Virus record (IMG/VR): IMGVR_UViG_3300007965_000016
Span: 1-29,411 of that record
Origin: a virus
Taxonomy: Duplodnaviria > Caudoviricetes
DNA length: 29,411 bases
Reading direction: 5' to 3' (one strand)
Positions 3 through 28,047 of the stretch are shown piece by piece. The notes beneath the pieces were generated by a model that searched no databases, had not been told where the DNA came from, and was given only the letters and a program-made list of their open reading frames with translations. Numbering within the stretch: position 1 is the stretch's first letter; each line of letters starts with the position of its first letter. Both the position numbers and the translations under genes were made by a program.

Positions 3-104
3 GTCGGACTTGACTTCAGAGAAGACACATCCCTTCGCTTACTCTCCGCTGAGTGTGGCGGCTGCGGAGCCGCCTGTGGTGAGATAAGAATTCAGACGCT
101 ATGA
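3..104 (+). CDS. 3' end of a small Cys-containing phage protein (possibly Lar-like zinc ribbon), truncated by the window edge
   Basis: Open frame reads VGLDFREDTSLRLLSAECGGCGAACGEIRIQTL*, with a CxxC motif; its TGA overlaps the next ATG (ATGA at 101-104). Confidence 0.4.
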   Translation, partial: VGLDFREDTSLRLLSAECGGCGAACGEIRIQTL

Positions 105-1662: not shown

Positions 1663-4600
1663 TCACCACCGTTGCCAGATCGGGTTCGGGTCAGTCGGAG
1701 CCGTCTGGGAATCTCCAGCCACAGCGTTCACAGTCGCCTCAATCTCAGGCTTCATCGAACCGGCGAACGGGATGCGGGCCAGCACTTTCCTGGTCGCGTT
1801 GCGCGCCTTGGCGTTGGACTCATCGCCCTTGGCTGCCGCGAACGCACCCTCTGCGATCTGGAGCGTGTCGGAGAACAAGCCCATTGTTGGGCCAGCAATC
1901 TGAGACATGATTCGCTCACGTCCATACGACCCATTATCAAGACTCTGAGCGCTCTGGAACATCAGGTCGCCAACGAAACCAAGCGCGCCAAGGGTGAGCA
2001 GGCCGGTAGCGTACCCGCCTAGCACATTGTCTGCTCCATCGCTGCTGATGCTGAAGTCCTTGAACCCTAGGTCTTGGCCAATCTTGCTTAGCCTGTAATC
2101 CTTGGCTGTGCGCCAGCTTTCTCCTTCCTGGTTGTTGCCCTTGATCACATCTTTTGCGTAAGCAGAGCCGTACCCAAGCGCCGCTCCGATGGTCAAAAGG
2201 TACATCAGGCCAGCGGGGTCTCCGGCGTACTTACCAACATCCTGTCCTTTCAGTTTGCCAATGACTGACCCGTTCTCAAATGCTCCAGCCTCTTTGAACA
2301 AACGGGAAACCAAGCGACCAGCCATCATGGGGTAGCTCTTGAACTGCCACAGAACGGATGCGATTGGGTCTTGCGCCCACAAAGGAACGTCCGACTTGTT
2401 CGGTTGAAAGATTGATTCGTCAGAGAACTTGTGGATCGCCTCTGCAATTTTCATCTGGCTTGGGGTGAAGTCACCTTCATGCCCGACGGCAGCCGCCATG
2501 GTGTCCAGAGGCTCCGCATTGATCAGCTCCGCCAAGCCGAGCTGGCGCAGGTAGCGCACGGAGCGGCGGTATGCCAACGAGTCAACATTGTTGTTGAACA
2601 TCTCGCGCTGTGCAATGGCCTGGTTGGCTTTGATCGACTCGAACCCGACAAGCGCGGAGTATTGGCGCATCGCGTTTGTCCATGGAGTGAGCATGTTGGC
2701 CTGGAAGAACGCGCTGCTCAAGCGAGCCATGGTTCCGCCATTCATATCCCCCATGGATTCCCGAAGCATGGACTCACCCAGCACTCCGATGCGGGCCATT
2801 GATTGCGCCATGATTGGATCGTTCATGGCCAGCTTGACTGACTTGGTGATCCCCTTCAGCATGGAGCCGATGGAACCGGAGCGAAGCAGCGGCATTGCTG
2901 TATCACCAAAGGACGCGATGGTTGCAGCAGACAGCAGTGTGGTGGACGCAAAGAGCTTTGCTCCTTGAGCGAACTTCTGAGCACTACGATTTGACGTGAT
3001 GGTGTGAGCGGGCCTGCCCTCCAAACCGCCCACAGCCTTGAGCATGAAGTCAAGCTCATGTGTTGCGGTGGTGTTGCCATCTGTGCCAAAGTCTGCCAGC
3101 GCGTTGACGATAGCCTCTGCGCGCAGGCGGAAGTGCTCAATGCCTGAGCCGCCGTTCTTTGCGTAAATCTTCATCAGGTCGTCCACAAGGATGGCTCGTG
3201 TGTGATCATCCTTGTCCTTCATCAACGTCTCTCCAAGGCTGCCAGCGATCTCCATGGCTTCTCGGCGGTCTTTTGTCAGTGGAACAAACAAGTTGTCCAT
3301 TACCGCCATTGGGCCAGCGGGTGGGAGACCAAGGTCGTCCGGCATGTTGTCAGCGATCATGTACTTCATGCCCTGGGCGCGACCCATCAGTGCCTCAATG
3401 ACGGCAATATCCCCTCGCTTGCCAATGTCGATGTACGTGTTGACTGCATGGCCACGGATGCCGAACCGCTTTGACCACTCCACGCGCTTGTGGGCCGCCT
3501 CGGAGTACGACGAGATTAAGGAGCGAAGGTTGTTGTCGAACAGTGGGGCCAGTGGCTCCCAATCTTTGCTGTCGATGCGCAGTTTGCGTTGGTAGAGCTT
3601 GTCTCCAAACGCCTTGCCATATACGGTTGTTGATCCTTCAAGCATCCCGTCCAGCTCCTTGCGGTACAGGGCTTCGTGGATTACGCGACGAGCATCATCC
3701 ATGGCATTGGCTGCGGTGGGATAACCCTTGCGGTCTTTTCTGAACCACTCCCCAAGCAGGCGGATAGCCTCCTCGCGGTTGGCCTCAATCCATGAAATGT
3801 TGAAACGCTGGGGTAGGTAGTTCCGATTCGACGCATTGGTTAGATCGGCCACAGGAACTCCTGCGTCACGTTGCATGATCAACAGCTTGCGGAACAACTG
3901 GACAACGCTTTCCTTGACCTTGATCTCCTCAATAGTCAACTTGCTGTCGTTGTTGGTACGCATGGCGAGGACGATGTTGGTCTCACTATCAGACTGCGGC
4001 ATGGTGTGGCCACGCAAGTCCAGGTTACGGTAGATTTCCTTACCCACTTTATGCAGCCAATTCTTGACCCCATCAAGCTGGTCAAGAGAGTTGACGATAG
4101 GCTGGAGATCGGCAGACAGACGCACGGCAAACGCATCGTTGAAGCCAGTGCCTTCCTTTGGCGTCATCAGATTTGCCAGCCACTTCCCGCCCATGTCAAA
4201 GATTCGGTTGGGGTTTGATTGGAGTTGGAGCATATGGAAAGCCCGAACCTTCGGATACTCCGCTTCGGACAATCCGGTGTCTGACTTCTTACCGGCGATG
4301 ATGTTTGCAAAGAGCTTGGCCATCAAAGATGGCGCGCCAGCCTGAATCGCACGCTGCTCCACTGCCACCAGTTCCGGCGCAGGGGCATCCAGTGCCATGT
4401 GCAGCACAAGCTCACCGGTAAGCGGCACGTTCTTAGCATTTTCGTTGCGCTTTAGACCTTGCTCTCTGGCGATGGCATCCTCCAGATCAACGATGTCAGT
4501 CTTGTTCTTGACAAGTAGGCGAGCGGTTCCATCGCCGTTGGCTACTGCAAGATATCCAAGGCGTTTGAGAACTGCATCCCGCTTCTCTCCAGCGGCGACA

Positions 4601-7600
4601 GCTTTCTCAACGTCCTGCACCTTGGGGTTGGTTTCATCAAATGGATCGAATACCTTCTTTTTATCAAACAGCACGGCACGAACTCCGTCAGAAGGTTCAC
4701 CTGCGGCTTGGATCAGGGCATCTCTCTTGGCCATCAGGCGGGTTACATCCTCCTGCTTGCCAGCCTTGATCAACGCCCCGATTTCTGCGTCAATATCGGC
4801 AATGCCTGGAGCGGAGCTGTTAGCTCCATCAGCCGCAGCACTTGTCAAAAATAGCTTTCCTGTTTTTGAGTCAACAAAGAACACGTTGTCGGCCAGGTTC
4901 TTTCCATTGGCACGAATGATGTTCAGCAGCTTGGAGGTGATCGTCTGCGGAAGGTTGGCAAGGCGGGTCGCAACGCTGGCGCGAGCGTGGATGGGGTGAT
5001 ACAAGCCAGTGGCTGCATACATTGCCCGGACGTGGGGGATCGGGACGGATAAAGTTTCACCAGCAGCATCCTCTGCAACTACCGTAAGTCCACCGAAAAT
5101 ATCTGATATGGTCTTCAACACGTCATTAACCTGTTGGCTCTCCGCAAGAGCGGATTTGACAGACCTCCACTCAGGGTCAGGGAACCCATTTTGGTAGAGG
5201 TACGAAATCATCTTCGCAAACTCTGATCGGTGAACGGCTCTGTCAATGGGGGTAGTTTCCAGGTCAGTACGCACCCAAATAGGCGGGTCGGCAGCGAAGC
5301 TCTTGACGGTTTGATCATAGAGTTGGCGCGAAATAATTGGCAATAATTTCTTGATTTGCTCAGGAATGTCTTTCGCTTTTCTTTGGACTAATGCCTCTGA
5401 AACTAGGCGGAGTGACTCTCGCAGAGAGTTGTATGCCTCAGTTTTTGTGTTGGCCATAGAGCGGGGGGAGTACCCATTCAATGCCTCCTTACCCAAGCCG
5501 GACAATCGAAGCACATCTGCGTTCGTCAGGTCTTCCGCCTTGTCACCAAAAAGGGTAGTAAACAGTCGGTACGTGAGCTGATCCAGCGTGCTCTTCGTAT
5601 GTGCATCGCGGTGCGTCATACGGGATACAAGGGTCTTCAGAAGATCAGGCGCTCCCACCGGCATCCCGGTACTCACTCCATCAGTTCTGGCTTCTGCTTC
5701 GGCCTTCGCTGCGGCTGCTCCTGCCTCAGTCTCCGGCTCGACGACGTTCGGAGACACGGGGTGCTTCTGCTTGGCAACTGCTTTCTTTGCTTCCTCAATG
5801 ATGTCATTCTCCGATGGCGTGTAGTCCGTTGATACGGCTCGCTCGGAGGGCATGACGCGAACGCCATGCTTCGCCAACTGTCCATCCAGTTCATCGAGGG
5901 CATCACCCATCATGTCGTAGAGTTTGCGCGACAGAGACATCAGCGCCTTCTGATGGCCATCATCTCCAACGAGGTGCTTGGACTGACCGGATTGGTCAAG
6001 AAGAGAATCCTCGATGTCAACTTTGTAAGCATCCTTCAGAAAATTGGCAGCTTCCTTGCGTGCGTAGGCATCACTTTGAGCCAGAGCATCGCTGTACTTT
6101 GAGGCTTCATTAGCGGAGATTTTTGACATCTCTAGACCCTTGGTCAGTTCTTTGAACTTGAACTGCAACGCCTCAAGGTAGTACGCATTCGCATCACCAT
6201 GGTCTCCTACGGAGTTGCTCTTCATAATCACCGAGACCTCTTCGGCATCAGTGGCAGCCTCGAAAGCCAGCTTGTCTGACATAGGTGACTCACCCATGGT
6301 GTCCACAATGGTGCTCATCAGTCGGCCAAGCTCGTGGCGCTGGAACAGGTCGCTAGCATCAATAACACCTAGGCGAGGTACGGATTTGACCAAGCCTTCT
6401 CCATTCGGGCCTTTGACAATACGGTTGGTGGCAGGGTCTCGCACCCACTTGTAAACGCCAGTAGCCTTTTGCACCTTGATCAGCAGCGCATCACGAACTT
6501 GCTGCACAGCGTAAGGCGTCTTTTTGCCTTTCTCTTTTCCGTAGAGCAGGCCAAAGAAGTATTTGGTCGCCTTCTCCAGCTCGCCACGGTAGCCACCATC
6601 AACTCCACCGGCAGTGAAGATATGGTGGGCCAGTGCGCCGCGTTGCTTGTCGATGGTCTCCATAAGAGCAATGTCGCTACCAACAGCGCTTCTCGTCAGG
6701 CTATCGGGGATGTCTGCAACATTGATAATCTTGCCATCCTTGCCAATGGGTGCGCTGTAGTTGTACTTGGTGTCGGAGAGCTTGGATGGCAAGATGCGCT
6801 CGAACAGGGGAACCAGGGCAGGCTCCACCGGTAGGTCAAGGAAGGTTGAAAGCAGGCCTCTCAGAACCTTGGCTATTTTTTGCCACAGAGTTTGCTCCGC
6901 AGCCCGACCAGCTTTCCCAACAGTGGTCTGCATGGCGTAACTGGTGAATTGCCAAGCGAACAGTTCGTTGGTATTGGTGCGTAGGTCAGCCAAATCCACC
7001 TTGGTCATGTCTTCAATTGCCCTTGCTGCATTCACTGATCTCAATACCGCATTGATGTCGAATTTCCCATCGGCATCGTAATACTTTGCAAGCGTTTTAA
7101 TGAATTCAATACGCTCGTTTGGAGAGAGCATATTCGTGAAAGCCCAATGACCTGTTTCATGGATCACGGCTATGTGTTTTGGGATACTCCTAAAACTGAA
7201 ATGACCTGTCTCATGCGTCTCGTCTACGACATCATTAGGCTTTTTCTCACCTCCGTAAATAGTGATTTTTGATTCTCCACGGTTGCTTCCTGTCCCAAAA
7301 GAGGAATAGTTTTGATCGCTGGAAAAGACAAAGGGAAAGGTATTGGCTGCCGGATCAACACGACGTAGAAAGTCGAGCGCAGAGCGGCGCTCCTCGTCAC
7401 TGAACCTGGCCATGTGCTCTTCAAGCCAGTGGAAAGACATGCGGCGAGAAGCATTGGTACGTTTGATCCCGTGTGGGGCTAATGCGTTGATCGTCTCCGC
7501 CTGCTTGGTGAGCGTCTCAATGACACTGTTCAACTCCTGGATCGTTCCAATCTTGTTAAAGGAGAGAGCCTGAACACCCATTTCAAACGAGTCCATCAAG

Positions 7601-10600
7601 CTAGCAAGCGTGTCACCATCAGGGAGTTTGACCTTGGATGCCTGTGCGTAGGAGACCGGGCGCTGCTGAGCAGTGGCAACAATAACTGCGTTGTCTGCAT
7701 TCTTGACCACATTCTTGATGGTCGCTGTAGCGGATGCAGGACGGGGTGTTCCACGTTGCTCAAACTCGCGCGCTTTTTTGTTTGGAAGCGCTGTGCCAAT
7801 CAGTGTCTTCTCCTTGACCAAGGGGTTCCACTTGAACAAAGCCAAGAACTCGCCCAGCGTTAGGCCCATCTGCTTGGCCCCGATGATCTCCACGCCTTCG
7901 GTGCCATCTGCTCTGACTGATTTCAGGGCAAGCAAGCGGCCTTCTGCCGGGGTCAGAATGTCCGACAGCTTGGTATTCATGTCGGTATCTGTAATGGCTC
8001 CATTGATCTTCAACGATGTGATCGCTTCATCGACTTGCGTGGACTTGCTCATCTCTGCGGGGATCAAAGCGCCAGGTTCTACTCCGCTGGCAGAGGACGG
8101 CATCTTGTCCTTGTTGGCTTGGAAAATTCCATCAAACTCCTTTCGGAACGCTTTGCGTTTGATGATCGACGCGAAGGTTGATACACCCTCATCCTCAATC
8201 GACTGGCCAATGCTAACGAGCACCTTGGAGTCAAGGCCGGGTGCCGGAATCCATGTTCCAATCTTTTCGCCAAACAGCTTGATCATTCCATCGGCATCCA
8301 TGACGAAGTGCTTGCTAATATCGAACTCGCGGTTGACGCCGCCAACAGAGATCACCAGCGACCCAATGTCTGTGGGAGCTGGTTCAACAGGCTCACCTTC
8401 CTTGACCAGAAGCGAGGTCGTTGATTTGCCTTTGCGCTTGGCGATTGCAGCAGCCTCTTCCTCTGCACGCTGACGTGTCGTCTTGGTCTCAGGAACCCCG
8501 ACCGCGCCGCCTTCCACAACTTTGGTCTTGGTGGCTGTTATAGGTACGACATCACCAACATTGACAGGCGTGTTGTCGCCCTTGACGGTCTGCGTCTTGG
8601 TGGTCGTCTTCGCGCGCTCAGTGATGCGGGTCTTGGAAGGCGTTGGGTACTTCTTCTCGATGGCAATCAGGAGGTTTCCTTGGCTCTTCTCCGTCGTACT
8701 CTTGAGGCGCTTGACGATCCCCATGATCAAGTCATGGCCCTTTTCGCCAGTCAACATGGCATCTTTAAGACCTTCTGCCATCTCAGCACGAGCAACGGAG
8801 TGCGCAGTGTCCATGGCCTCCTTGTGATCAATGATCATGCTGGCCAGGTCAATCTCGGAGGGGTGGACAGGGAAGCTATTGTCGCCAACCATCTTGATCA
8901 GGCTGTCGAACCGCTCTTTGGTAATCGCACGATCGACGTTCTCTGGCGTGTCTTTCGCCAAACCGAGGGCAATGTTGTCTCCAAGTCTTAGCCGCTCAAC
9001 CAGGTCGTAGATGGTGGATGCGCGGGCGTTCTCTGCCCTGGCGTTGACGGTCTCAGCCAGCCGACCTTTAATCTCTTTGACTGACGAGGATGCTTTGACG
9101 CCATCAACGAAAATCGAAGCCTTCGACCACGACGCTACCTTGATTGCTCCGGCAAAGATTTCAGAACGAACTGCTCTCGCTGCGGCGAACATCTTTCTGG
9201 GGTTGGCCCAAAGCACGCCAAGGTAATTGGAGATGCCATCAGAGAACGCCTTTTGCGGGCCTCCGACTGTCTTCACTCCACCCATGCTGGTGTCAATGCG
9301 GCGACCGGTAACGATCTTATCGACGTAGATCGGGTTTCCATCCTCATCTACCTTGCCGGTATTGAGGCGGTGCATGGCCGGAGTCTCAACGATGCCTTCA
9401 GCAAACGGATTTTTTGCTTGCTGATTGCTTCGTGTAAACAGACGGTCACGATCTCTTACGCGCAACTGGTACATCGCCTCCAGCTTGTCGAACGCTTCCT
9501 TGTTTTGAATTTTGAAGGTTCCATCAATCTCGCTCTTCATGGAACGTAGGGCATGAATCTCCAGGATTTGATCCATCAACTCCTGATCGACATAAGCGCC
9601 AGATGACTGAATCTGCTTCATGAAGTCGGAGACGCTTTTACGAACCTTTTTGATAATGGCTACAGCTCCTTCTCCAGAGATCGCAGCCTTGACAGCACCA
9701 TCAACCACGGCCATGTTGCGGTTGACAATCTCCGAGAGATCAGACCTCACGGTGGTTTTCCCGCCCGCGATCTGGCGGCCATCATTGGTCGTCTTGATCA
9801 TGTGGTTCCAAGCCTGGGCCAACACGGGGTCTTTTTGCAGGTTGTCAATCCCGATGGCAGAGACGCGCTCAATCAAAGATGCGTTGATCTCTTTCTGGTT
9901 ATGCGCCACGATCTTTGCAATGTCGTCGGAGAACCTGTCTCCCAGCATCGCCTTCAGCACTTGCTCAAAGTGCGTGGTGTTTGTCGGGTCAGGAAGAACT
10001 GATCCGATTTGCATCTCGTAGTGCAGCGCCATCGCCTCGTCTGCCATGGCTTTGATTCTGACTTTTGCTGCGGTTGCGCCCTTCTCGCTGCTGAACGGCT
10101 TGGGCATAACCTGATCAAAGATCGTTGCCAGCTCGGGGTGATCGGCCTTTGCTTGGCTGATGACCAGATCAAATATCTCCTTTTTCCTTTCCTTGTCTGG
10201 AGCTTTTGCGGCTGCGCCAAATGTTTTCTGTGCGTCATTCAAGTCGTCTTCAATGGCCTTCAACACGCCGTCAATCACAGCATGGATGTCGCTGACCTGC
10301 TTGTTCAAAGAAGCAACGATGCCTTCGTGAACTTGCACGGCGCTAAGCTGGGCACGGTCAACTGCGGCCTTTTCAAAGGCTTCCAGCTTGGCTTGGAGTT
10401 CTGCTTTTTGTGCGATCAGCTTCTCTGTATCAGCAGCGATTTGCTCATCTGTCCTGGTGTCCTCTACCGGTGGCACCGTGTCAGATGGCGTAGCAGCGGC
10501 CTCTGTTGGAACGGCTGTGGCAGTAGGAGCGGGAGTAGCGGGAGGAGCGGGAGGAGCCAATGCAGCCTGGGCTTGGCGATCAATAGCCGCCTTGGCTATC

Positions 10601-12339
10601 TTGGCAGGCTCTTGGAGTGCTGGATCGGATGTTCCAGCAAGAATTGTTTGCAGCTTAGCTTCTGGAGTAACTCCATCCTTGGCCGCCTGATCCTTGATCG
10701 CCGCAATGGCTGCCTTCTCCTCCGGGGTTGGAACGTACGTGGACGGAGGGGTCTCTGTAGCTACAGCTTTTGTAGCTGCTGTTGCTTGTAGTGGTTGGGC
10801 TGTAGCTACATTTGGGGCCTGACCGTCGGGTAATGCGGCGGTGGCTGTCGGAGCGGCAGCGGAAACCGCAGCAGTTGCAGTCGGAGTAGCCGCATTCGCG
10901 GTACTTGGAGCAGCGGCAGCGGTGGCGGGAGTGGCGGGAGTGGTAGGAGTAGCAGTAGCAGCAGCAGCATCGGCTGGCTTGGCATTCTTCTTCCCGCCTT
11001 TTTTGGCAGCAGGCTTGTTGGCATCAATGCCAAACGTGTCAGCAATGCGCTGGTCATACGGGGCGGCAATGTTGACGATCTTTGACACCAGGTCATCTGT
11101 CGCGCCGGTGAGTTGGTTGTCACCCAGCTCTTTGATCTTGATCAGGTTGTCAGCGAACTCAGCGTACTTGCGAGCAGCAAGCTCATGGGCATCTGCCGCC
11201 TTGGCCAGGTTCACGTCTGGGGCTGCATCATTCTGTTCTCGGAGCAGCTTGGCCTGTGCCAAATGGGTCTCGACTTTGTTGTGCGAAGTTGAGAACTCGT
11301 TGAGCACAACTTCCAAGGCCCGGAGCTGATCCTTGGTGTACACGGAGGGCGTGCCCATGCCGACGCGCTCGGCAAAGATGCCGACCGATGAAGTGGCATC
11401 ACCGAGCGCAGTCTTGTAATCGGTGAGATCGTTTTCAGGGTTCAACTCAGGAGTGTCTGGAGCCAGGTTCTGTTCTGCAAGTTTGGCCTCCATTTCCGCT
11501 CGCTTACCCGCATCCACCACAGCGCCAGGAACATCCTTGGCCAGCTTGTTGGCCGCCATGCGTCCTCCAACATACCCTGCGCCAGCGCCGAGAGCGCCGC
11601 CAAGGCCAGCGGCGAAGACTGCGTTTTCTGCCGCTCCAAGGTAGCTGAATTGATCTTGGCTGCCACGCTGCATATTCGCATTCTGCTGGGCCACATCGCC
11701 CAACCCACCAGCAACAAAGTTGTCCAGTGCCTCTCCTTTGGCTGCCGTCTTCCAGCCTTGGGATGTCACCTCTTGTTTCAGGGCTTGAGTAGCGCCGTCA
11801 ATCCCCAAATCTGCTAGGCCTTGCTCGCCTGCTTTTTTTAAAGCGGTTGCCTTGAATGCTTCCTCCGCTACCCTGCCAACGCCCAGGGCCGTCTTCGCCC
11901 CAGCAGTCAGAAGCAGGAGAGGGGCATCGGCCAAACCACCTATCAAGGCCGCGCCAACGGCGTTACCAGTGGCCGCTGCGTCGCCGGAGAACAGGCGATT
12001 GGGTGCGCTCTCGTAAAGACGGTCTTGCAGGTTACGGAATTGCTTTTGCTGGATGCTCTCACCAAGAGATGACCCAAAGTCCCAGATCGACGCGATGGCA
12101 GAGGAGCCGCGCGCAGTCATGGTGTTGAGCATGTCTGTCTTCAACGCCTCAGTATCACCACCATATTTCGTACCGTTTGGGTCGATGGACGAGTGGAGGA
12201 ACTTTGTCAGCTCCTGGTTTGCACCAACTTGATCCCAGGTCGCATCCTTGAACAAGGAGTTGGGGTCGCTGGCGGCAGAGATAGTTGACTTCAGGTTGTT
12301 GTCGCCGCTCTTGAGGATGAGGTCGAATAAGTTTGACAT
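1663..12339 (-). CDS. giant internal virion / DNA ejection protein (3558 aa) with zincin-like metallopeptidase motif
   Basis: 10.7-kb ORF with SD GGAG before ATG 12339 (the track's TTG at 12345 is less likely); last gene of the podovirus virion module; HETGH x2 plus NELFA; C-terminal WQFKSYP motif and hydrophobic Gly-rich helices as in gp16-type proteins. Confidence 0.8.
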   Translation of the reverse strand: MSNLFDLILKSGDNNLKSTISAASDPNSLFKDATWDQVGANQELTKFLHSSIDPNGTKYGGDTEALKTDMLNTMTARGSSAIASIWDFGSSLGESIQQKQFRNLQDRLYESAPNRLFSGDAAATGNAVGAALIGGLADAPLLLLTAGAKTALGVGRVAEEAFKATALKKAGEQGLADLGIDGATQALKQEVTSQGWKTAAKGEALDNFVAGGLGDVAQQNANMQRGSQDQFSYLGAAENAVFAAGLGGALGAGAGYVGGRMAANKLAKDVPGAVVDAGKRAEMEAKLAEQNLAPDTPELNPENDLTDYKTALGDATSSVGIFAERVGMGTPSVYTKDQLRALEVVLNEFSTSHNKVETHLAQAKLLREQNDAAPDVNLAKAADAHELAARKYAEFADNLIKIKELGDNQLTGATDDLVSKIVNIAAPYDQRIADTFGIDANKPAAKKGGKKNAKPADAAAATATPTTPATPATAAAAPSTANAATPTATAAVSAAAPTATAALPDGQAPNVATAQPLQATAATKAVATETPPSTYVPTPEEKAAIAAIKDQAAKDGVTPEAKLQTILAGTSDPALQEPAKIAKAAIDRQAQAALAPPAPPATPAPTATAVPTEAAATPSDTVPPVEDTRTDEQIAADTEKLIAQKAELQAKLEAFEKAAVDRAQLSAVQVHEGIVASLNKQVSDIHAVIDGVLKAIEDDLNDAQKTFGAAAKAPDKERKKEIFDLVISQAKADHPELATIFDQVMPKPFSSEKGATAAKVRIKAMADEAMALHYEMQIGSVLPDPTNTTHFEQVLKAMLGDRFSDDIAKIVAHNQKEINASLIERVSAIGIDNLQKDPVLAQAWNHMIKTTNDGRQIAGGKTTVRSDLSEIVNRNMAVVDGAVKAAISGEGAVAIIKKVRKSVSDFMKQIQSSGAYVDQELMDQILEIHALRSMKSEIDGTFKIQNKEAFDKLEAMYQLRVRDRDRLFTRSNQQAKNPFAEGIVETPAMHRLNTGKVDEDGNPIYVDKIVTGRRIDTSMGGVKTVGGPQKAFSDGISNYLGVLWANPRKMFAAARAVRSEIFAGAIKVASWSKASIFVDGVKASSSVKEIKGRLAETVNARAENARASTIYDLVERLRLGDNIALGLAKDTPENVDRAITKERFDSLIKMVGDNSFPVHPSEIDLASMIIDHKEAMDTAHSVARAEMAEGLKDAMLTGEKGHDLIMGIVKRLKSTTEKSQGNLLIAIEKKYPTPSKTRITERAKTTTKTQTVKGDNTPVNVGDVVPITATKTKVVEGGAVGVPETKTTRQRAEEEAAAIAKRKGKSTTSLLVKEGEPVEPAPTDIGSLVISVGGVNREFDISKHFVMDADGMIKLFGEKIGTWIPAPGLDSKVLVSIGQSIEDEGVSTFASIIKRKAFRKEFDGIFQANKDKMPSSASGVEPGALIPAEMSKSTQVDEAITSLKINGAITDTDMNTKLSDILTPAEGRLLALKSVRADGTEGVEIIGAKQMGLTLGEFLALFKWNPLVKEKTLIGTALPNKKAREFEQRGTPRPASATATIKNVVKNADNAVIVATAQQRPVSYAQASKVKLPDGDTLASLMDSFEMGVQALSFNKIGTIQELNSVIETLTKQAETINALAPHGIKRTNASRRMSFHWLEEHMARFSDEERRSALDFLRRVDPAANTFPFVFSSDQNYSSFGTGSNRGESKITIYGGEKKPNDVVDETHETGHFSFRSIPKHIAVIHETGHWAFTNMLSPNERIEFIKTLAKYYDADGKFDINAVLRSVNAARAIEDMTKVDLADLRTNTNELFAWQFTSYAMQTTVGKAGRAAEQTLWQKIAKVLRGLLSTFLDLPVEPALVPLFERILPSKLSDTKYNYSAPIGKDGKIINVADIPDSLTRSAVGSDIALMETIDKQRGALAHHIFTAGGVDGGYRGELEKATKYFFGLLYGKEKGKKTPYAVQQVRDALLIKVQKATGVYKWVRDPATNRIVKGPNGEGLVKSVPRLGVIDASDLFQRHELGRLMSTIVDTMGESPMSDKLAFEAATDAEEVSVIMKSNSVGDHGDANAYYLEALQFKFKELTKGLEMSKISANEASKYSDALAQSDAYARKEAANFLKDAYKVDIEDSLLDQSGQSKHLVGDDGHQKALMSLSRKLYDMMGDALDELDGQLAKHGVRVMPSERAVSTDYTPSENDIIEEAKKAVAKQKHPVSPNVVEPETEAGAAAAKAEAEARTDGVSTGMPVGAPDLLKTLVSRMTHRDAHTKSTLDQLTYRLFTTLFGDKAEDLTNADVLRLSGLGKEALNGYSPRSMANTKTEAYNSLRESLRLVSEALVQRKAKDIPEQIKKLLPIISRQLYDQTVKSFAADPPIWVRTDLETTPIDRAVHRSEFAKMISYLYQNGFPDPEWRSVKSALAESQQVNDVLKTISDIFGGLTVVAEDAAGETLSVPIPHVRAMYAATGLYHPIHARASVATRLANLPQTITSKLLNIIRANGKNLADNVFFVDSKTGKLFLTSAAADGANSSAPGIADIDAEIGALIKAGKQEDVTRLMAKRDALIQAAGEPSDGVRAVLFDKKKVFDPFDETNPKVQDVEKAVAAGEKRDAVLKRLGYLAVANGDGTARLLVKNKTDIVDLEDAIAREQGLKRNENAKNVPLTGELVLHMALDAPAPELVAVEQRAIQAGAPSLMAKLFANIIAGKKSDTGLSEAEYPKVRAFHMLQLQSNPNRIFDMGGKWLANLMTPKEGTGFNDAFAVRLSADLQPIVNSLDQLDGVKNWLHKVGKEIYRNLDLRGHTMPQSDSETNIVLAMRTNNDSKLTIEEIKVKESVVQLFRKLLIMQRDAGVPVADLTNASNRNYLPQRFNISWIEANREEAIRLLGEWFRKDRKGYPTAANAMDDARRVIHEALYRKELDGMLEGSTTVYGKAFGDKLYQRKLRIDSKDWEPLAPLFDNNLRSLISSYSEAAHKRVEWSKRFGIRGHAVNTYIDIGKRGDIAVIEALMGRAQGMKYMIADNMPDDLGLPPAGPMAVMDNLFVPLTKDRREAMEIAGSLGETLMKDKDDHTRAILVDDLMKIYAKNGGSGIEHFRLRAEAIVNALADFGTDGNTTATHELDFMLKAVGGLEGRPAHTITSNRSAQKFAQGAKLFASTTLLSAATIASFGDTAMPLLRSGSIGSMLKGITKSVKLAMNDPIMAQSMARIGVLGESMLRESMGDMNGGTMARLSSAFFQANMLTPWTNAMRQYSALVGFESIKANQAIAQREMFNNNVDSLAYRRSVRYLRQLGLAELINAEPLDTMAAAVGHEGDFTPSQMKIAEAIHKFSDESIFQPNKSDVPLWAQDPIASVLWQFKSYPMMAGRLVSRLFKEAGAFENGSVIGKLKGQDVGKYAGDPAGLMYLLTIGAALGYGSAYAKDVIKGNNQEGESWRTAKDYRLSKIGQDLGFKDFSISSDGADNVLGGYATGLLTLGALGFVGDLMFQSAQSLDNGSYGRERIMSQIAGPTMGLFSDTLQIAEGAFAAAKGDESNAKARNATRKVLARIPFAGSMKPEIEATVNAVAGDSQTAPTDPNPIWQRW
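10490..11010 (-). repeat. Ala/Thr/Pro low-complexity linker within the giant protein
   Basis: AAAATATPTTPATPATAAAAP... and APPAPPATPAPTATAVPTE; short GCA/GTAGCA/GGGAGTGGC tandem units. Confidence 0.7.
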
Positions 12340-12375
12340 GCACAATTCTCCAGTTAGAGTACAGGTTGTATTGTC

Positions 12376-12402
12376 GCATCAGTATGCGACGAAAGCGACT
12401 TT
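12376..12402 (-). promoter_or_regulatory. putative late promoter motif upstream of the giant virion gene
   Basis: AAAGTCGCTTTCGTCGCATACTGATGC is 23/27 identical to the motif upstream of the capsid gene; it overlaps the inverted repeat GTCGCAT-N4-ATGCGAC. Confidence 0.6.
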
Positions 12403-12839
12403 TATCCTAACCCCATGCGGCGCAGGATTTGGTCAGCGTATTGACGTGATGTCGGGTCTTGTGGGCGCTTCTTGTTTCCCCAATCGTGGACGGTTCCATC
12501 CTGGGCTACAACACCCTCTCCTGCATAGTACGCAGCGGCGGCCTTGTACGGATCGTTGTTGAACTTCTTGAGCAGGTAGGATGCCCATATCTGGCCAGCG
12601 CGGAGGGTGTGGTTTGGGTTTCTGAAGTCTGCATCCTGCGGGATCAGGCCCAGCTTCTTCATGCCATCAAAGGTTGTGTCTTTGATTTGCATCGGGCCGG
12701 TCACGCCCTGGCTATTGACCTTTGACGTGTCAGCCTTACCGGAGCTTGACTCCTGCCCATAGATCGCATTGATGAACTTCTCCTCCAGGCCTTTCGCATC
12801 ACCGGGAGCAGGGGAGGCTGCCCCTGCTCCCTCTGTCAA
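12402..12839 (-). CDS. lytic transglycosylase (SLT) domain, probably expressed as a -1 frameshift extension of the upstream virion protein
   Basis: SLT motifs GQESS (catalytic Glu), GPMQI, AAAAYYAG and TSRQYADQI; only a TTG start with no SD; linker-like N-terminus. Confidence 0.85.
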   Translation of the reverse strand: MTEGAGAASPAPGDAKGLEEKFINAIYGQESSSGKADTSKVNSQGVTGPMQIKDTTFDGMKKLGLIPQDADFRNPNHTLRAGQIWASYLLKKFNNDPYKAAAAYYAGEGVVAQDGTVHDWGNKKRPQDPTSRQYADQILRRMGLG

Positions 12840-12844
12840 AAATG
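12804..12844 (-). promoter_or_regulatory. candidate programmed -1 frameshift signal (CAT TTT TGA plus 11-bp hairpin)
   Basis: Minus strand reads CATTTTT-GACAGA-GGGAGCAGGGG-CAGCCT-CCCCTGCTCCC. Confidence 0.6.
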
Positions 12845-14734
12845 TGGCGCTGCGTAGGCTGGGTTGTAGAGCCTTTGCGGCGTTCCGTAGGGAGCGGCGG
12901 AGACGGGATTCAGTTGCAACGATTTCAGGCGATCCTCATAAGCCTGCTTGGCTTTGTCGGCGTTCGTCATGTGGCGTTTTACATCCATCGCTACCCCAGC
13001 CTTCGACAGGATTTGCTGCGTCATCACCTCTGCCTGATCGCCAAACGAGCGTGAGGTTTCGCTGAACCCAGCCGCTTTCAAGAAGCTGACTACTGACTTC
13101 CTTGCAGCCTCATAGTCCCTCTGCGCAATGTCTTGGGCGGAGACGCCGAATGTCTGGTTCAAGGAAATGGCAGAACGAATCGTTTGAATTTTCAGAGCTT
13201 CGTGCTCGATCAGGCCAGCTTTGATTGCTTCGGCGGAGGCGTAAGCTGTGTTGGCCACTTCGTTATTTGACCCAGATGTTGCTCTCGCGCTCCCTGATGC
13301 AGCATAGTTGCGAATGGGAATCTTGTTTCCCTGCTCGTCAGTCCGGTATCCAATGATCGGGCCTTCGTTTGCAAGTGATGCAGGAGCACTACCCCCGACG
13401 TAATTCTTCTGGCTGATTTCGGCGAATCCCTTGTACGCAGCTCCAGCCTCTTCCAGAATCTTCGGAGACGAATTGAGTGTGGCCGCCGTGGCAAAGAACT
13501 CTTGCGGAGAATCGAACCTTGCGTGTGCCAACTTTGCCCCAGCTTCCACCCTCCCGCGAAGTGAGGAAAGAGTTTCCATCTTGGCGACATAATCCCTGAT
13601 CTTTTCTGGCGAGCCAGTCTCCAGAACATTGACAAGCTCCGGGATGTCCGTCACGTAGTGGCTGCGCAAATACGATGCGACCTGAGTCTGCACCTTCTCG
13701 TCAGATGAGACCGGTGGTATCCCCTTTTTCTTGTCGCCGGAAACAACCGCAGACTCTCTGGCCTGCGACAGCGAGACCTGATCCGCAAGGCTTGCCATGG
13801 CGGTGATGGCCTTTTGGCGCTGATCCTCTTCTTTTGCGTCGAGATCAGCGGCAGCAATGGCATTGCGCCCGTAATCAGCCTGGGCTGTCTTGACGGCATC
13901 AGCACCCTGTATCTGGGTCTGCTGTTGGATGTATCGGTCATTGGCAGCTTTGGCTGCTTGAGACGCTTTTTTCTGCAAGTCGTCGATGGTCGATGCAGGC
14001 ATCCTTGGAAACAGTGTCTTGATGCGGTCACGGAATGACTGACCTTCAACCTCCGTCCCGGTGTATCCGCCAGAGCCGCCAATCTTGTCGGCCTCAGCGA
14101 GCACCTGGTTGGATGCGGAAGCAAGGTTGTTCTCCGCCGCACGAGTCAGGCCGTCGATGTGTGCTTGCGAGAGCACCGACTTGTTCTGTTCTACGAACGA
14201 TTGAGCATCCTCCGGGAACATGGTCTTGCCAATCTCTGACCCCTTCTGCATCCCTTCCAGCGTGGCCTGCTGATTGATGGTTCCCAGCTTTGGCTGAATG
14301 AGGTTGAAGCGCTCTCCGTAGCGGTCAAGACCGGCACGGTAAACTTCATCTGGCGATTTTCCTTGGAGGAATAACTGGCTTGCCATGGTGGACATATCCG
14401 TAGATTCTTTTTCATCGGAGGCAAACTGTGCGCGTCGGTTGATTTCAGCCTGCTTCTTGGCCTTCTCGTTGTAACTTTGAGTCATGGAGGCCAGCATGTC
14501 GCGCGAGGGTGCTGCGCTGTTCAGGTAGGCACTTGCACCAAGCGTATCCTTGGCCAGTGTGGCGGCCTGATCCACGCCCATGGTGATGCCTTGCTCGGCT
14601 TGAGCATTGAGAACATCCATCAGAGCCTTCCGGTTATCGAGACGGGATTGCCTGCGTTTGGCAATGGCTTCGTCTTGAACATCAGAAGTCGAGAAGTTGT
14701 TCGATCCCGGAAAGTAAGAGGGCATATTTGCCAT
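12836..14734 (-). CDS. internal virion / ejection protein (632 aa, helical)
   Basis: ATG at 14734 with SD AAGGA; Ala/Gln-rich coiled-coil character; position between other ejection-type genes. Confidence 0.7.
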   Translation of the reverse strand: MANMPSYFPGSNNFSTSDVQDEAIAKRRQSRLDNRKALMDVLNAQAEQGITMGVDQAATLAKDTLGASAYLNSAAPSRDMLASMTQSYNEKAKKQAEINRRAQFASDEKESTDMSTMASQLFLQGKSPDEVYRAGLDRYGERFNLIQPKLGTINQQATLEGMQKGSEIGKTMFPEDAQSFVEQNKSVLSQAHIDGLTRAAENNLASASNQVLAEADKIGGSGGYTGTEVEGQSFRDRIKTLFPRMPASTIDDLQKKASQAAKAANDRYIQQQTQIQGADAVKTAQADYGRNAIAAADLDAKEEDQRQKAITAMASLADQVSLSQARESAVVSGDKKKGIPPVSSDEKVQTQVASYLRSHYVTDIPELVNVLETGSPEKIRDYVAKMETLSSLRGRVEAGAKLAHARFDSPQEFFATAATLNSSPKILEEAGAAYKGFAEISQKNYVGGSAPASLANEGPIIGYRTDEQGNKIPIRNYAASGSARATSGSNNEVANTAYASAEAIKAGLIEHEALKIQTIRSAISLNQTFGVSAQDIAQRDYEAARKSVVSFLKAAGFSETSRSFGDQAEVMTQQILSKAGVAMDVKRHMTNADKAKQAYEDRLKSLQLNPVSAAPYGTPQRLYNPAYAAPHF

Positions 14735-14760: not shown

Positions 14761-16116
14761 TTACCCAACAATCCACTCATCCCACGAGAATGTCGGCTCA
14801 TCGTAGACTGGAGTCTGGTCTTGCCATGAGCTTGTGTCGAACTGAAAACCTTGGTCGGGCACTTCCCATGAGCTTGTGTCGAACTGAAGACCTTGGTCGG
14901 GCACTTGCCATGCGCTTATGTCGAAAAAGTTACTCCCTTGGCCTGGGTCTGTGTAGGAGTAGTCCCACTGAAACCCTGGTTGCAGGTCGTAATTAACAGG
15001 GTCTGAGGAACCAGACCCGCCAAGGGAGTAATCGACTGAGCCACCGTATTGGAAGGCCGGGTTTGTATTGCTTTTAAGTCTCAGTCCGGGTTCGGAAGGC
15101 ACATTTCCATATAGAGAATAGTTCACAGAACCATCTTCGTTCAATACATTTTCTGGATTGAAGGGAGGGACTTTTAAGCCCTGGCCTGACGGCAATCCTG
15201 TGCCGAGAGAATAGTCAACAGAGCCATCAGGCTTGAAGTACAACTGTGACCCGCCTCCAGTCCTTAGCGCGTCTGAAAGGCTTTTAGAGAGACCATTGGA
15301 TACTCCATTATTGATAGCTGATCTGAGGTTTGGGTTGCTGGTATTCTGGGTTCCAAAAACCTTGTCTACCAGACCTCCTCCTGCGGCAGCCAACTTTTGG
15401 TACAAGCCTGATCCAGTTTCCGTTTGAAGGAATTTGTCCAGCATATTGGCACCAGTGTCGAACATCTTGCCGGTGTTGATGGCGACATCCCTGTTTGCCA
15501 ATGCGCTTGCGGCTTGCCCCACGTTGTTGGCGTCTGTCACGCTGCGGAGCTGAGTGTTGTACAGGTTTTGAAGAGCGTTGTATTTGGTGGAGTCTGACTG
15601 GATCGAGTTCTGCTGATCCGCTTGGGTCAGCTTTCGCAGAGCCAACCCCTCTTCAAATGCTTTGGCCCAGGCCTTCTCGTCAAGGCCGGAGTAGAGATCA
15701 CCCATCTGGCGAGCAACCCCCACCTGGCCATCAACTGCTTGCGTGGAATCTCCCATCCCGCCTTTCAGCGCTTTCAGCAATCCTTGTGAAGAGGCGATGG
15801 CAGCGGCCCGGTCATAGGAGCCAATCTGGGAGGCTTTGATCTGGGCGGCCCGGTTCGTCAGGCGCTCATCATCCTGCGGGCTGACGGATGAATACTCTTT
15901 CCCAATCTTCCCGGACAGGTCTTTGAGGTATCCAGACCCCTGATCAACTGTGTCTGTGTACACCTTGTATGTTCCATCTGCGTAGGACTTGGCCTTGTCG
16001 GCTGCATCCTTGGCGTCTGCGTAGTTCATGTAATCACGGCCTGCGCCGAGTACCGAAAACAACGTGCTGGTGTCAGTTTTTTGAGATGGTGTCGTGCTGT
16101 CTATTGTGGTTTCCAT
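14761..16116 (-). CDS. putative internal virion protein with repetitive acidic/aromatic C-terminus (451 aa)
   Basis: SD AGGAG; helical N-terminal half; DGSVDYSLG-type and FDTSSW repeats in the C-terminal half; synteny. Confidence 0.65.
   Translation of the reverse strand: METTIDSTTPSQKTDTSTLFSVLGAGRDYMNYADAKDAADKAKSYADGTYKVYTDTVDQGSGYLKDLSGKIGKEYSSVSPQDDERLTNRAAQIKASQIGSYDRAAAIASSQGLLKALKGGMGDSTQAVDGQVGVARQMGDLYSGLDEKAWAKAFEEGLALRKLTQADQQNSIQSDSTKYNALQNLYNTQLRSVTDANNVGQAASALANRDVAINTGKMFDTGANMLDKFLQTETGSGLYQKLAAAGGGLVDKVFGTQNTSNPNLRSAINNGVSNGLSKSLSDALRTGGGSQLYFKPDGSVDYSLGTGLPSGQGLKVPPFNPENVLNEDGSVNYSLYGNVPSEPGLRLKSNTNPAFQYGGSVDYSLGGSGSSDPVNYDLQPGFQWDYSYTDPGQGSNFFDISAWQVPDQGLQFDTSSWEVPDQGFQFDTSSWQDQTPVYDEPTFSWDEWIVG
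14821..14925 (-). repeat. 42-bp tandem repeat (about 2.5 copies; 14-aa unit)
   Basis: CCATGAGCTTGTGTCGAACTGAA(A/G)ACCTTGGTCGGGCACTT recurs at 14824, 14866 and partially 14908. Confidence 0.85.
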
Positions 16117-27378: not shown

Positions 27379-27530
27379 GGTAATGTTTTCCTTGCTACGT
27401 TCTCGCTCGGTTCAACATAATTCGCCGCATCTTCAGGCAAATATATCCCTCCAATCTGCTCGCATAACCATAGCAGATTGTCGGATAGCAAGTCGATGAA
27501 CTGATAAAAGATGTCAAACGGCGACTTCAT
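27375..27530 (-). CDS. small hypothetical protein (51 aa)
   Basis: ATG 27530 with SD GAGG; its stop overlaps the next ATG (ATGA). Confidence 0.45.
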   Translation of the reverse strand: MKSPFDIFYQFIDLLSDNLLWLCEQIGGIYLPEDAANYVEPSENVARKTLP

Positions 27531-28047
27531 CGGCAACCTCTTCTGGGTACTTGGCCATGATCTCATCCATGACGGAGAGCAGTGCAGCAAAGCACGCGCG
27601 GGATGAGTCAACAATGTCGGTGCGAGAACGCAACTTATGCAACTCTTGAAGCGCAGCTTGTCTGTCTTGCCATGTCAAGTGAGATGTCGGGTAGCCAATC
27701 AGCTTGCGACGCATGATCTCTCCACCCATCAGGTGTGCTCCGGTCAAGACATAGCAAGCGCCAGCAATGTCATTCTCCGTCTTGAGTGTCTGGATGTAGA
27801 GATTGGCGGCCTTGGAGTCCTCAAGATTGAAACCGCTGTCTGTGATGTCGTTTGCCAGCAGGTACTCACGCTGCAACAAGTAGGCCATGCTGTCGTCGAT
27901 GGCGCTGTGAATCTGGTGCAGTGCGGTGAGCCATGCTGCGTACCATTTCTTTGGCGGGTTCCCTTGAGCCATCGCGTGCCCAACAGGGTGCGCTTCGCAG
28001 GCGTGGTGGATGTCTCGTGTTGCTTCCCAGAGAGGGGTGATAGACAT
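27514..28047 (-). CDS. heme oxygenase-like protein (177 aa)
   Basis: LWEATRDIHHACE (proximal His helix) and YVLTGAHLMGGEIM (distal helix, compare YLGDLSGGQ); SD AAGGA. Confidence 0.75.
   Translation of the reverse strand: MSITPLWEATRDIHHACEAHPVGHAMAQGNPPKKWYAAWLTALHQIHSAIDDSMAYLLQREYLLANDITDSGFNLEDSKAANLYIQTLKTENDIAGACYVLTGAHLMGGEIMRRKLIGYPTSHLTWQDRQAALQELHKLRSRTDIVDSSRACFAALLSVMDEIMAKYPEEVADEVAV

Follow-up and report, generated by a model that had tools for sequence, protein, structure and literature searches.

A predicted ejection-protein gene of an uncultured short-tailed phage probably carries a programmed −1 ribosomal frameshift site at its last codon. The shift would extend the protein by an SLT lytic transglycosylase domain. 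The phage fragment (Duplodnaviria; Caudoviricetes) is IMG/VR record IMGVR_UViG_3300007965_000016, positions 1 to 29,411; this whole stretch of 29,411 nucleotides is referred to here as the window. The reading is favoured by a coding −1 frame that is conserved, is entered at the slip motif and lacks a conserved start of its own in three loci. DNA-level conservation of the junction covers three lineages. As far as their sequences tell, T_TTY, stop, stem and SLT in the −1 frame form a real, conserved feature of three diverged phages. The hairpin-stimulated −1 frameshift proposed by the first-pass annotation gains support from this recurrence.

The proposed mechanism has the following steps. (i) Most ribosomes would stop at the UGA, yielding a protein of 632 aa. 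(ii) On U_UUU a minority, probably held up by the 3' hairpin, would move back by one base and go on to make a 777-aa form with the SLT domain at its C-terminal end. (iii) By extension from tetramer work in E. coli, tRNA-Phe would leave UUY and pair anew with UUU, so that the junction reads ...H-F-L-T-E-G. The peptide expected across the −1 junction is YAAPHFLTEGAG. (iv) The slip would most likely occur with Phe in the A site, since the 6-7 nt spacing of the stem is the textbook one for this case; were Phe in the P site and the slip to occur at the stop, the product would be identical. (v) Efficiency would be low, about a percent to a few percent. (vi) Both forms would be packed in the virion, where a few extended copies would cut peptidoglycan at the point where the ejected channel passes through the periplasm. 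The long form could be missing from many particles, because tetramers are inefficient and ejection proteins are present in few copies per virion. The whole signal spans under 45 nt.

Gene order and the 632-aa gene

Structural genes of the window lie on the minus strand in the order SU10-type major capsid protein, tail genes, three unannotated large genes and a 3.5-kaa protein; a converging integrase gene follows. The gene that ends at the junction (12836..14734, minus), called from its ORF, Shine–Dalgarno (SD) sequence and gene order, encodes 632 aa from ATG or 646 from an upstream GTG. Its slot, between the tail genes and the largest internal virion gene, is that of podophage ejection proteins. 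Profile scans of the protein give no Pfam or PHROG match, and comparison with PDB sequences returns repeat-protein noise only. An ESM Atlas lead to PF16928 (Inj_translocase) scores 0.87, below the 0.9 bar. Mainly from gene order, with natural fusions (see below) and the sub-bar ESM Atlas lead in addition, the 0-frame product is predicted to be an internal virion (ejection) protein.

The giant downstream protein of about 3558 aa, considered for context only, has its own SD and ATG (1663..12339, minus). Its N-terminus is weakly like gp36, 'internal virion protein D', of Roseobacter phage CRP-810 (pairwise E 0.001, probability 20%). The CRP-810 record (L065 9062-16226) has the giant gene split into overlapping ORFs gp35/gp36, and the end of gp35 and the start of gp34 share a repeated peptide; the gp34-gp36 splits are possibly sequence errors in the record. 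In L007 and L069, the two relatives with DNA described below, the SD and ATG of the giant gene lie within a long hairpin (L007 19094-19150, −27 kcal/mol; L069 3930-4003, −33 kcal/mol over the region); the two differ by a matching C-G to G-C change. This hairpin may limit expression of the giant protein. The corresponding start region of the window (12336-12404, minus) folds more weakly, −14 kcal/mol in all, including a separate 7-bp inverted repeat.

Other features of the region are recorded here as observations. Where the integrase and giant genes meet, a 10-bp inverted repeat (1630-1659) is probably a shared terminator. A 451-aa protein (14761-16116, minus) has C-terminal repeats, whose number varies between strains, since its version in the near-identical contig L067 is 14 residues longer. 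A 177-aa ORF (27514-28047, minus) has a weak heme oxygenase match (E 0.002, below cut-off). The heptanucleotide GGACGAC lies at most 6 nt past a stop-like triplet in 51 of 63 capsid-related loci (L002-L064; a raw count), often before the giant gene, and may be a late-promoter or regulatory motif; no copy lies in that context in the window.

The junction

The 632-aa gene ends CCA CAT TTT TGA. The last base of the His codon and the terminal Phe codon form the tetramer T_TTT (12839..12842, minus). The 0-frame stop TGA (12836..12838, minus) is overlapped by TTG ACA of the −1 frame. The −1-frame extension (12402..12842, minus) comprises a 22-residue linker and the SLT domain. Taken as an ORF in its own right it encodes 145 aa from the TTG (12839..12402, minus), which overlaps the stop as TTGA; the −1 frame is open only 32 codons further upstream. 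The ORF matches Pfam SLT (PF01464) at E 1e-12 over residues 13-116 (48.1 bits against a curated cut-off of 21.3) and PHROG 342, 'internal virion protein with endolysin domain', at E 1.5e-10. The motif GQES is present in every SLT homologue that extends that far, and its Glu (12752..12750) is the presumed catalytic residue, as in the SLT family. The extension is thus predicted to be a lytic transglycosylase domain with an intact ES motif. Sequence and Pfam match bear out the earlier description of a gene ending CAT TTT TGA with an SLT ORF in the −1 frame. Stop read-through was rejected as a route to the domain because the SLT does not lie in frame 0.

The TTG had also been described as lacking an SD. 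Its anti-SD duplex is indeed at +1.1 kcal/mol, against −3.9 or lower at nine of 11 other starts; two other tested starts of the window are likewise without SD. Among 229 Phe codons in eight window genes, 32 are preceded by T. T_TTY followed by a stop occurs at one of the 22 gene ends of the window, that of the 632-aa gene.

The tetramer belongs to an established type. Z_ZZN tetramers are described as a second class of bacterial −1 motif in the excerpted text of PMC4066793. With an IS3 pseudoknot, six of them were active in E. coli at 0.26-5.6%, in the order A_AAG >> U_UUC > U_UUU, which places U_UUC and U_UUU second and third of 16; A_AAG and U_UUY predominate in 87 IS elements with tetramers (PMC4066793). 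The tetramer lies in the 0 frame, with cognate re-pairing allowed, as T_TTT in the window and as T_TTC in both L007 and L069. The first-pass annotation had cautioned that the site is not a canonical X_XXY_YYZ heptamer. That much stands: A_CAT_TTT and A_CAT_TTC bar double re-pairing, and only L007 has G_GAT_TTC. The caveat itself is weaker than stated, since the site is a known IS3-type U_UUY tetramer. No conserved SD-like stimulator of the dnaX or IS911 type lies within 30 nt upstream of the slip site.

The downstream hairpin

Folding places an 11-bp hairpin (12804..12831, minus) after the stop, where it also encodes the linker and is predicted to stimulate the shift. Its arms GGGAGCAGGGG and CCCCTGCTCCC (12831..12804, minus) form a perfect 11-bp stem with a 6-nt loop at −26.3 kcal/mol. 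The stem begins 6 nt past the T5 run and 7 nt past the T_TTT tetramer. It is the sole perfect Watson-Crick stem of at least 11 bp (loop 3-12) across the 29.4-kb window, and the most stable structure among 5525 sampled 40-nt segments of the coding strand; two of 500 shuffles match it (z −3.85). Of the window's 22 gene ends, only two give a fold below −11 kcal/mol: the junction, which is the strongest, and the terminator-like stem of the last gene. The junction hairpin is absent from the terminator scan and is followed by GGTGATG instead of a U-run. Folding and terminator scan thus agree with the perfect stem, six nt past the T-run and without a U-tail, that had first been noticed.

Stimulators of the IS3 type lie 4-10 nt past the motif, contain a G-C pair and at least three more pairs, and have an unfolding energy of at least 7.6 kcal/mol, according to the excerpted PMC4066793. 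Stems of all three loci agree with this rule, starting 6-7 nt past the motif with energies of −26.3, −17.9 and −18.2 kcal/mol for the window, L007 and L069. The latter two extend from stop+7/8 to +35 and are unlike the window's stem in sequence. They rank in the top 0.9% within their own loci, and 36 of 500 and 17 of 500 shuffles, respectively, fold as well, a modest result. Strict covariation is uncountable, because part of the pairing register in L007 and L069 differs by one base from that of the window.

A second stem is possible, with low confidence and post hoc, in which 4 nt at 12789..12792 (minus) pair with the hairpin loop at 12818..12815. Loop pairing at stop+47..50 recurs in the three loci with 4, 3 and 4 bp, chosen post hoc from 10, 8 and 2 possible pairings of at least 3 bp. 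Such pairing would give an H-type pseudoknot, a suggestion of equally low confidence.

Conservation of the junction in relatives with DNA

A scan with the capsid protein gave 63 loci, one of which, L007 (capsid 82% identical), extends as far as the junction and is laid out like the window. A metagenome scan with the N-terminus of the giant protein gave three loci, two of the window's phage and the new locus L069. Identity to the 632-aa protein is 24-27% for the upstream proteins of L007 and L069. Their genes end GAT TTC TAA and CAT TTC TAA, respectively, each with SLT in the −1 frame. Junction peptides of that frame are FLTEGAG in the window, FLKEGGG in L007 and FLTEGAG in L069, and they align without gaps to GQES. 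Likeness in the −1 frame begins at the Phe; a longer shared stretch upstream is accounted for by the 0 frame. Homologues were thereby checked for a conserved T-run, stop and hairpin, and in both relatives the stem is kept by position while its sequence is different.

Across the three loci the SLT shows pN of 0.21-0.31 vs pS of 0.67-0.72, with synonymous sites saturated. The domain is under purifying selection and is intact in all three, so some route for its expression must exist. Despite this saturation the junction string A-TTT-Y-T-R-A-M-AGAGGG persists. At the Leu position the codon is TTG in the window and CTA in both relatives, the latter because their stop is TAA. No start codon is therefore conserved at the junction. 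The nearest ATG, GTG or TTG codons of L007 and L069 lie in differing places, with duplex energies of −1.9 to −2.6 and no clear SD.

Other searches were less productive. Exact-word search for relatives of the 632-aa protein came up empty in viral contigs and, among proteins, recovered only its own fragment. No relative was found in GTDB genomes, and no relative of the SLT among GenBank phages. A junction-pattern scan recovered L007 again; its match L075 was set aside as a chance hit in an unrelated siphophage gene. SLT-motif scans returned L007 once more, together with in-frame SLT domains of other phage proteins.

Protein homologues and the terminal Phe

Short SLT homologues comprise 23 proteins: those of the three DNA loci, two that look like other types (P0091 and P0100, left out of the alignment), five that start at or inside the linker, and 13 called from the Met of GPMQ, past the GQES Glu. 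The last set looks like a recurring annotation error, for which the frameshift reading would account. Residue 3 of the linker is T, K, T, N, S and T in the six sequences that show it, all A-starting codons because the stop ends in A. Linker residues G5 (6/6) and P13 (7/7) are kept, and their codons make up the stem base. None of the 81 longer SLT homologues resembles the 632-aa family.

With the 632-aa protein as query, a full HMMER search returned 42 hits at E<=0.001, its own fragments included; 37 of these are full-length database proteins. Phe is the C-terminal residue in 19 of the 37, vs 2.9% Phe overall. An SLT partner whose longest source sequence is of identical size exists for 10 of 13 F-enders vs none of seven others (Fisher p 0.003), in an indirect pairing that was looked up for 20 of the 37 homologues and whose rows are phylogenetically dependent. 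The window falls in a 19-row clade (SH-aLRT 100, quick tree), within which SLT goes with 13 of 14 F-stop proteins (three by DNA, 10 by equal size) vs none of five FR/FE-enders. Aromatic ends (F, WW, WGF) occur family-wide, including outside the SLT-bearing clade, and one distant positional counterpart ends WGF and is followed by a separate SLT gene. Because such ends occur outside the clade, the terminal Phe is probably a protein trait older than the slip site, which co-opted it. As a separate observation, P0119, P0120, P0123, P0133 and P0141 end F-R or F-Q and may be UUU_C sites at which a +1 shift leads into a further domain.

Natural in-frame fusions to a muralytic domain, a further thing to look for named by the first-pass annotation, do exist in the family. 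They are P0144 and P0152, two of 37-38 aligned members. P0144 carries the family domain at 7-554 (E 8e-45 with a profile built from 18 clade proteins), then Pfam SLT at 575-663. In P0152 the family domain runs to about 564 and the muralytic match, to PHROG 873 'endolysin' and 7182 'tail injection transglycosylase', covers 560-668. In its domain order, P0144 matches what the frameshift product is predicted to look like, its SLT being of another lineage.

Timing of the slip and other routes to the domain

The first-pass annotation had tRNA-Phe slip in the P site, with the stop waiting in the A site. This timing, a variant within the frameshift reading, is rather unlikely. It would fit the position of the stop directly after Phe in 3/3 loci and, by protein ends, in 14/19 clade members; the stop may, however, serve solely to spare the short form additional residues. 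With Phe in the P site the stem would begin only 3-4 nt past the A-site codon, vs the 4-10 nt given in the excerpts of PMC4066793. The junction peptide deduced for a P-site slip stands, as it is the same for both timings; the preference for that site is less secure, since A-site slippage fits the 6-7 nt spacing at least as well.

Translational coupling is a quite improbable alternative to frameshifting. Ribosomes would stop at the UGA and re-initiate at the overlapping TTG, releasing a free 145-aa SLT that is packed separately. The TTGA overlap is usual coupling geometry, and P0087/P0106 and P0088 are called from the same start position as the 145-aa ORF. Distant relatives also bear on this reading. 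Ten more distant records were searched, and the slot was read in nine of them (G006 ends before it) and in CRP-810. Weak N-terminal likeness to the family is seen in the positional counterparts of CRP-810 and G010 (pairwise E 0.0005 and 0.001). In two of the ten records, G004 and G010, the slot is occupied by a separate SLT gene that has its own ATG and SD. In G004 the overlap is TAATG, with an SD of −5.8 and post-stop structure of −0.4 kcal/mol; G010 has TAG CCC ATG, an SD of −4.7 and post-stop structure of −4.1 kcal/mol. A free SLT is thus a workable design in the phage group, and this keeps re-initiation alive as a rival; its hallmarks (ATG, SD, no stem) are missing in the window's clade.

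Several observations speak against coupling in that clade. The TTG is replaced by CTA in L007 and L069, so that independent TTG re-initiation, named by the first-pass annotation as a result that would overturn its proposal, is not borne out; the nearest other starts, as described above, share neither position nor a clear SD. No start is called before the catalytic motif in 13 of 23 short homologues. G004 and G010 are without post-stop structure, whereas the window's clade keeps a strong stem, and such structure is reportedly depleted where re-initiation is useful (PMC7518266, in excerpt), which counts against coupling. Coupling also leaves the conserved T before the Phe codon and the fixed linker length unexplained.

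Two of the distant slots show further arrangements. The SLT gene of G010 (L102 895-1797, minus) stands alone three bases past the stop of the slot gene and combines SLT with a second endolysin-like domain. In G002 (L098 7619-8830, minus) a 403-codon ORF in the +1 frame overlaps the slot gene and has a peptidase M15-like end (Pfam E 0.0065, below cut-off); a TTG with a possible SD is present, and either coupling or a +1 shift could apply. The remaining six slot-read records and CRP-810 have nothing in the SLT slot.

It is very unlikely that the hairpin is an ordinary insulating structure after a stop, or a chance product of Gly/Ala/Pro linker codons, with the SLT barely expressed or a recent remnant. 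Insulating structures follow 18-65% of genes in bacterial genomes in the excerpted account of PMC7518266, and two of the three stems are modest against shuffles; the purifying selection on an SLT intact in all three loci and the rarity of strong folds at other gene ends of the window stand against this reading.

The T run was checked in contigs, not raw reads, so that rare variants are lost. It has 5 T in all eight sequencing runs examined (of 23 listed), whose contigs align without gap or mismatch; these are near-identical to the window and represent the same phage, and three of the runs are possible sources of the window DNA. Two JGI contigs are identical to the window across the junction. 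The 6-T assembly that the first-pass annotation had wished to see excluded was thus found in none of them. Assembly error, recent frameshift mutation of a fused gene and RNA-polymerase slippage on the T run, for which the T5 run and the in-frame fusions within the family might speak, are together extremely unlikely, because the contigs agree on 5 T and, more strongly, two diverged phages break at the same codon, where the run is merely TTT, too short for polymerase slippage.

Comparison with known systems

Frameshifting of the IS3 type is the nearest mechanistic relative. According to the excerpted PMC4066793, it shares U_UUY, single re-pairing of tRNA-Phe on UUU, a longer fusion product, a G-C-rich structure 4-10 nt downstream and independence of an upstream SD. 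There the product is a transposase, whereas here a phage virion gene is involved, the tetramer is the last sense codon before the stop, and the event is predicted from sequence.

Phage frameshifts are described for tail chaperones and for capsid and major tail extensions in the available part of the review PMC5009743. T7/T3 10A/10B, Lactobacillus A2 and Listeria A118/A500/PSA likewise produce a short major and a C-terminally extended minor virion protein. In those phages capsid or major tail proteins are extended, mostly by Ig-like domains, at sites of the G_GUU_UUC type or CCC_UGA (PMC5009743), whereas here a predicted ejection protein would gain an enzyme domain by way of a tetramer. Lambda G/GT resembles the present case in a −1 shift that is conserved despite low protein identity and sets the ratio of two products. 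It differs in using a heptamer and tRNA-Lys to make chaperones of long-tail assembly, in place of a virion enzyme of a podophage-type ejection cluster (PMC5009743). The words 'peptidoglycan' and 'transglycosylase' do not occur in the available part of that review, and 'frameshift' is not mentioned in the corresponding part of the CRP-810 paper PMC11288001. The open-licence literature yielded no case in which a frameshift attaches a muralytic domain to an ejection protein. The case is one of a known mechanism, the IS3-type −1 shift, in a use not found in print in that literature.

Roseobacter phage CRP-810 (OR671924.1) is the closest cultured phage by capsid (51%) and has the same gene order and an integrase. 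Its gp37 is the counterpart with weak likeness to the 632-aa family mentioned above; unlike the window, it has no SLT or overlapping ORF after this gene. The protein slot may be solved in four ways within one superfamily: by in-frame fusion, by a separate coupled gene, by a −1 frameshift, as proposed here, and with no enzyme at all.

Ejection proteins of the T7 gp16 type have a built-in SLT domain in every copy. The predicted long form is alike in that an internal virion protein carries the SLT, consistent with the PHROG 342 match, and among full-length SLT homologues the closest are domains lying in frame within other virion proteins. It is unlike them in that only frameshifted copies would be armed. 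If the frameshift reading is true, recoding would equip the DNA-ejection machinery with an enzyme and determine how many copies of it are present, a point relevant to the minimum number of muralytic domains with which a virion can cross the periplasm. With a shift rate of only a few percent, sibling virions would differ in being armed at all. It is conceivable, if somewhat doubtful, that this podophage-like clade tunes the number of armed ejection-channel copies by a minimal −1 signal (U_UUY-stop with a hairpin or pseudoknot), with recoding as bet-hedging between thick and thin peptidoglycan.

By analogy, the closest functional counterpart is the proteolytic trimming of lactococcal Tal. As given in the excerpts of PMC11409707, the Tal proteins of TP901-1 and Tuc2009 also form a mixed population of a virion protein with and without its wall-degrading domain, and full-length Tal aids on highly cross-linked walls. 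There the mixture arises without recoding, through proteolysis of a tail-tip protein in siphophages of Gram-positive hosts (PMC11409707); in the window's clade a ribosomal shift at the last codon of an ejection-protein gene would produce it.
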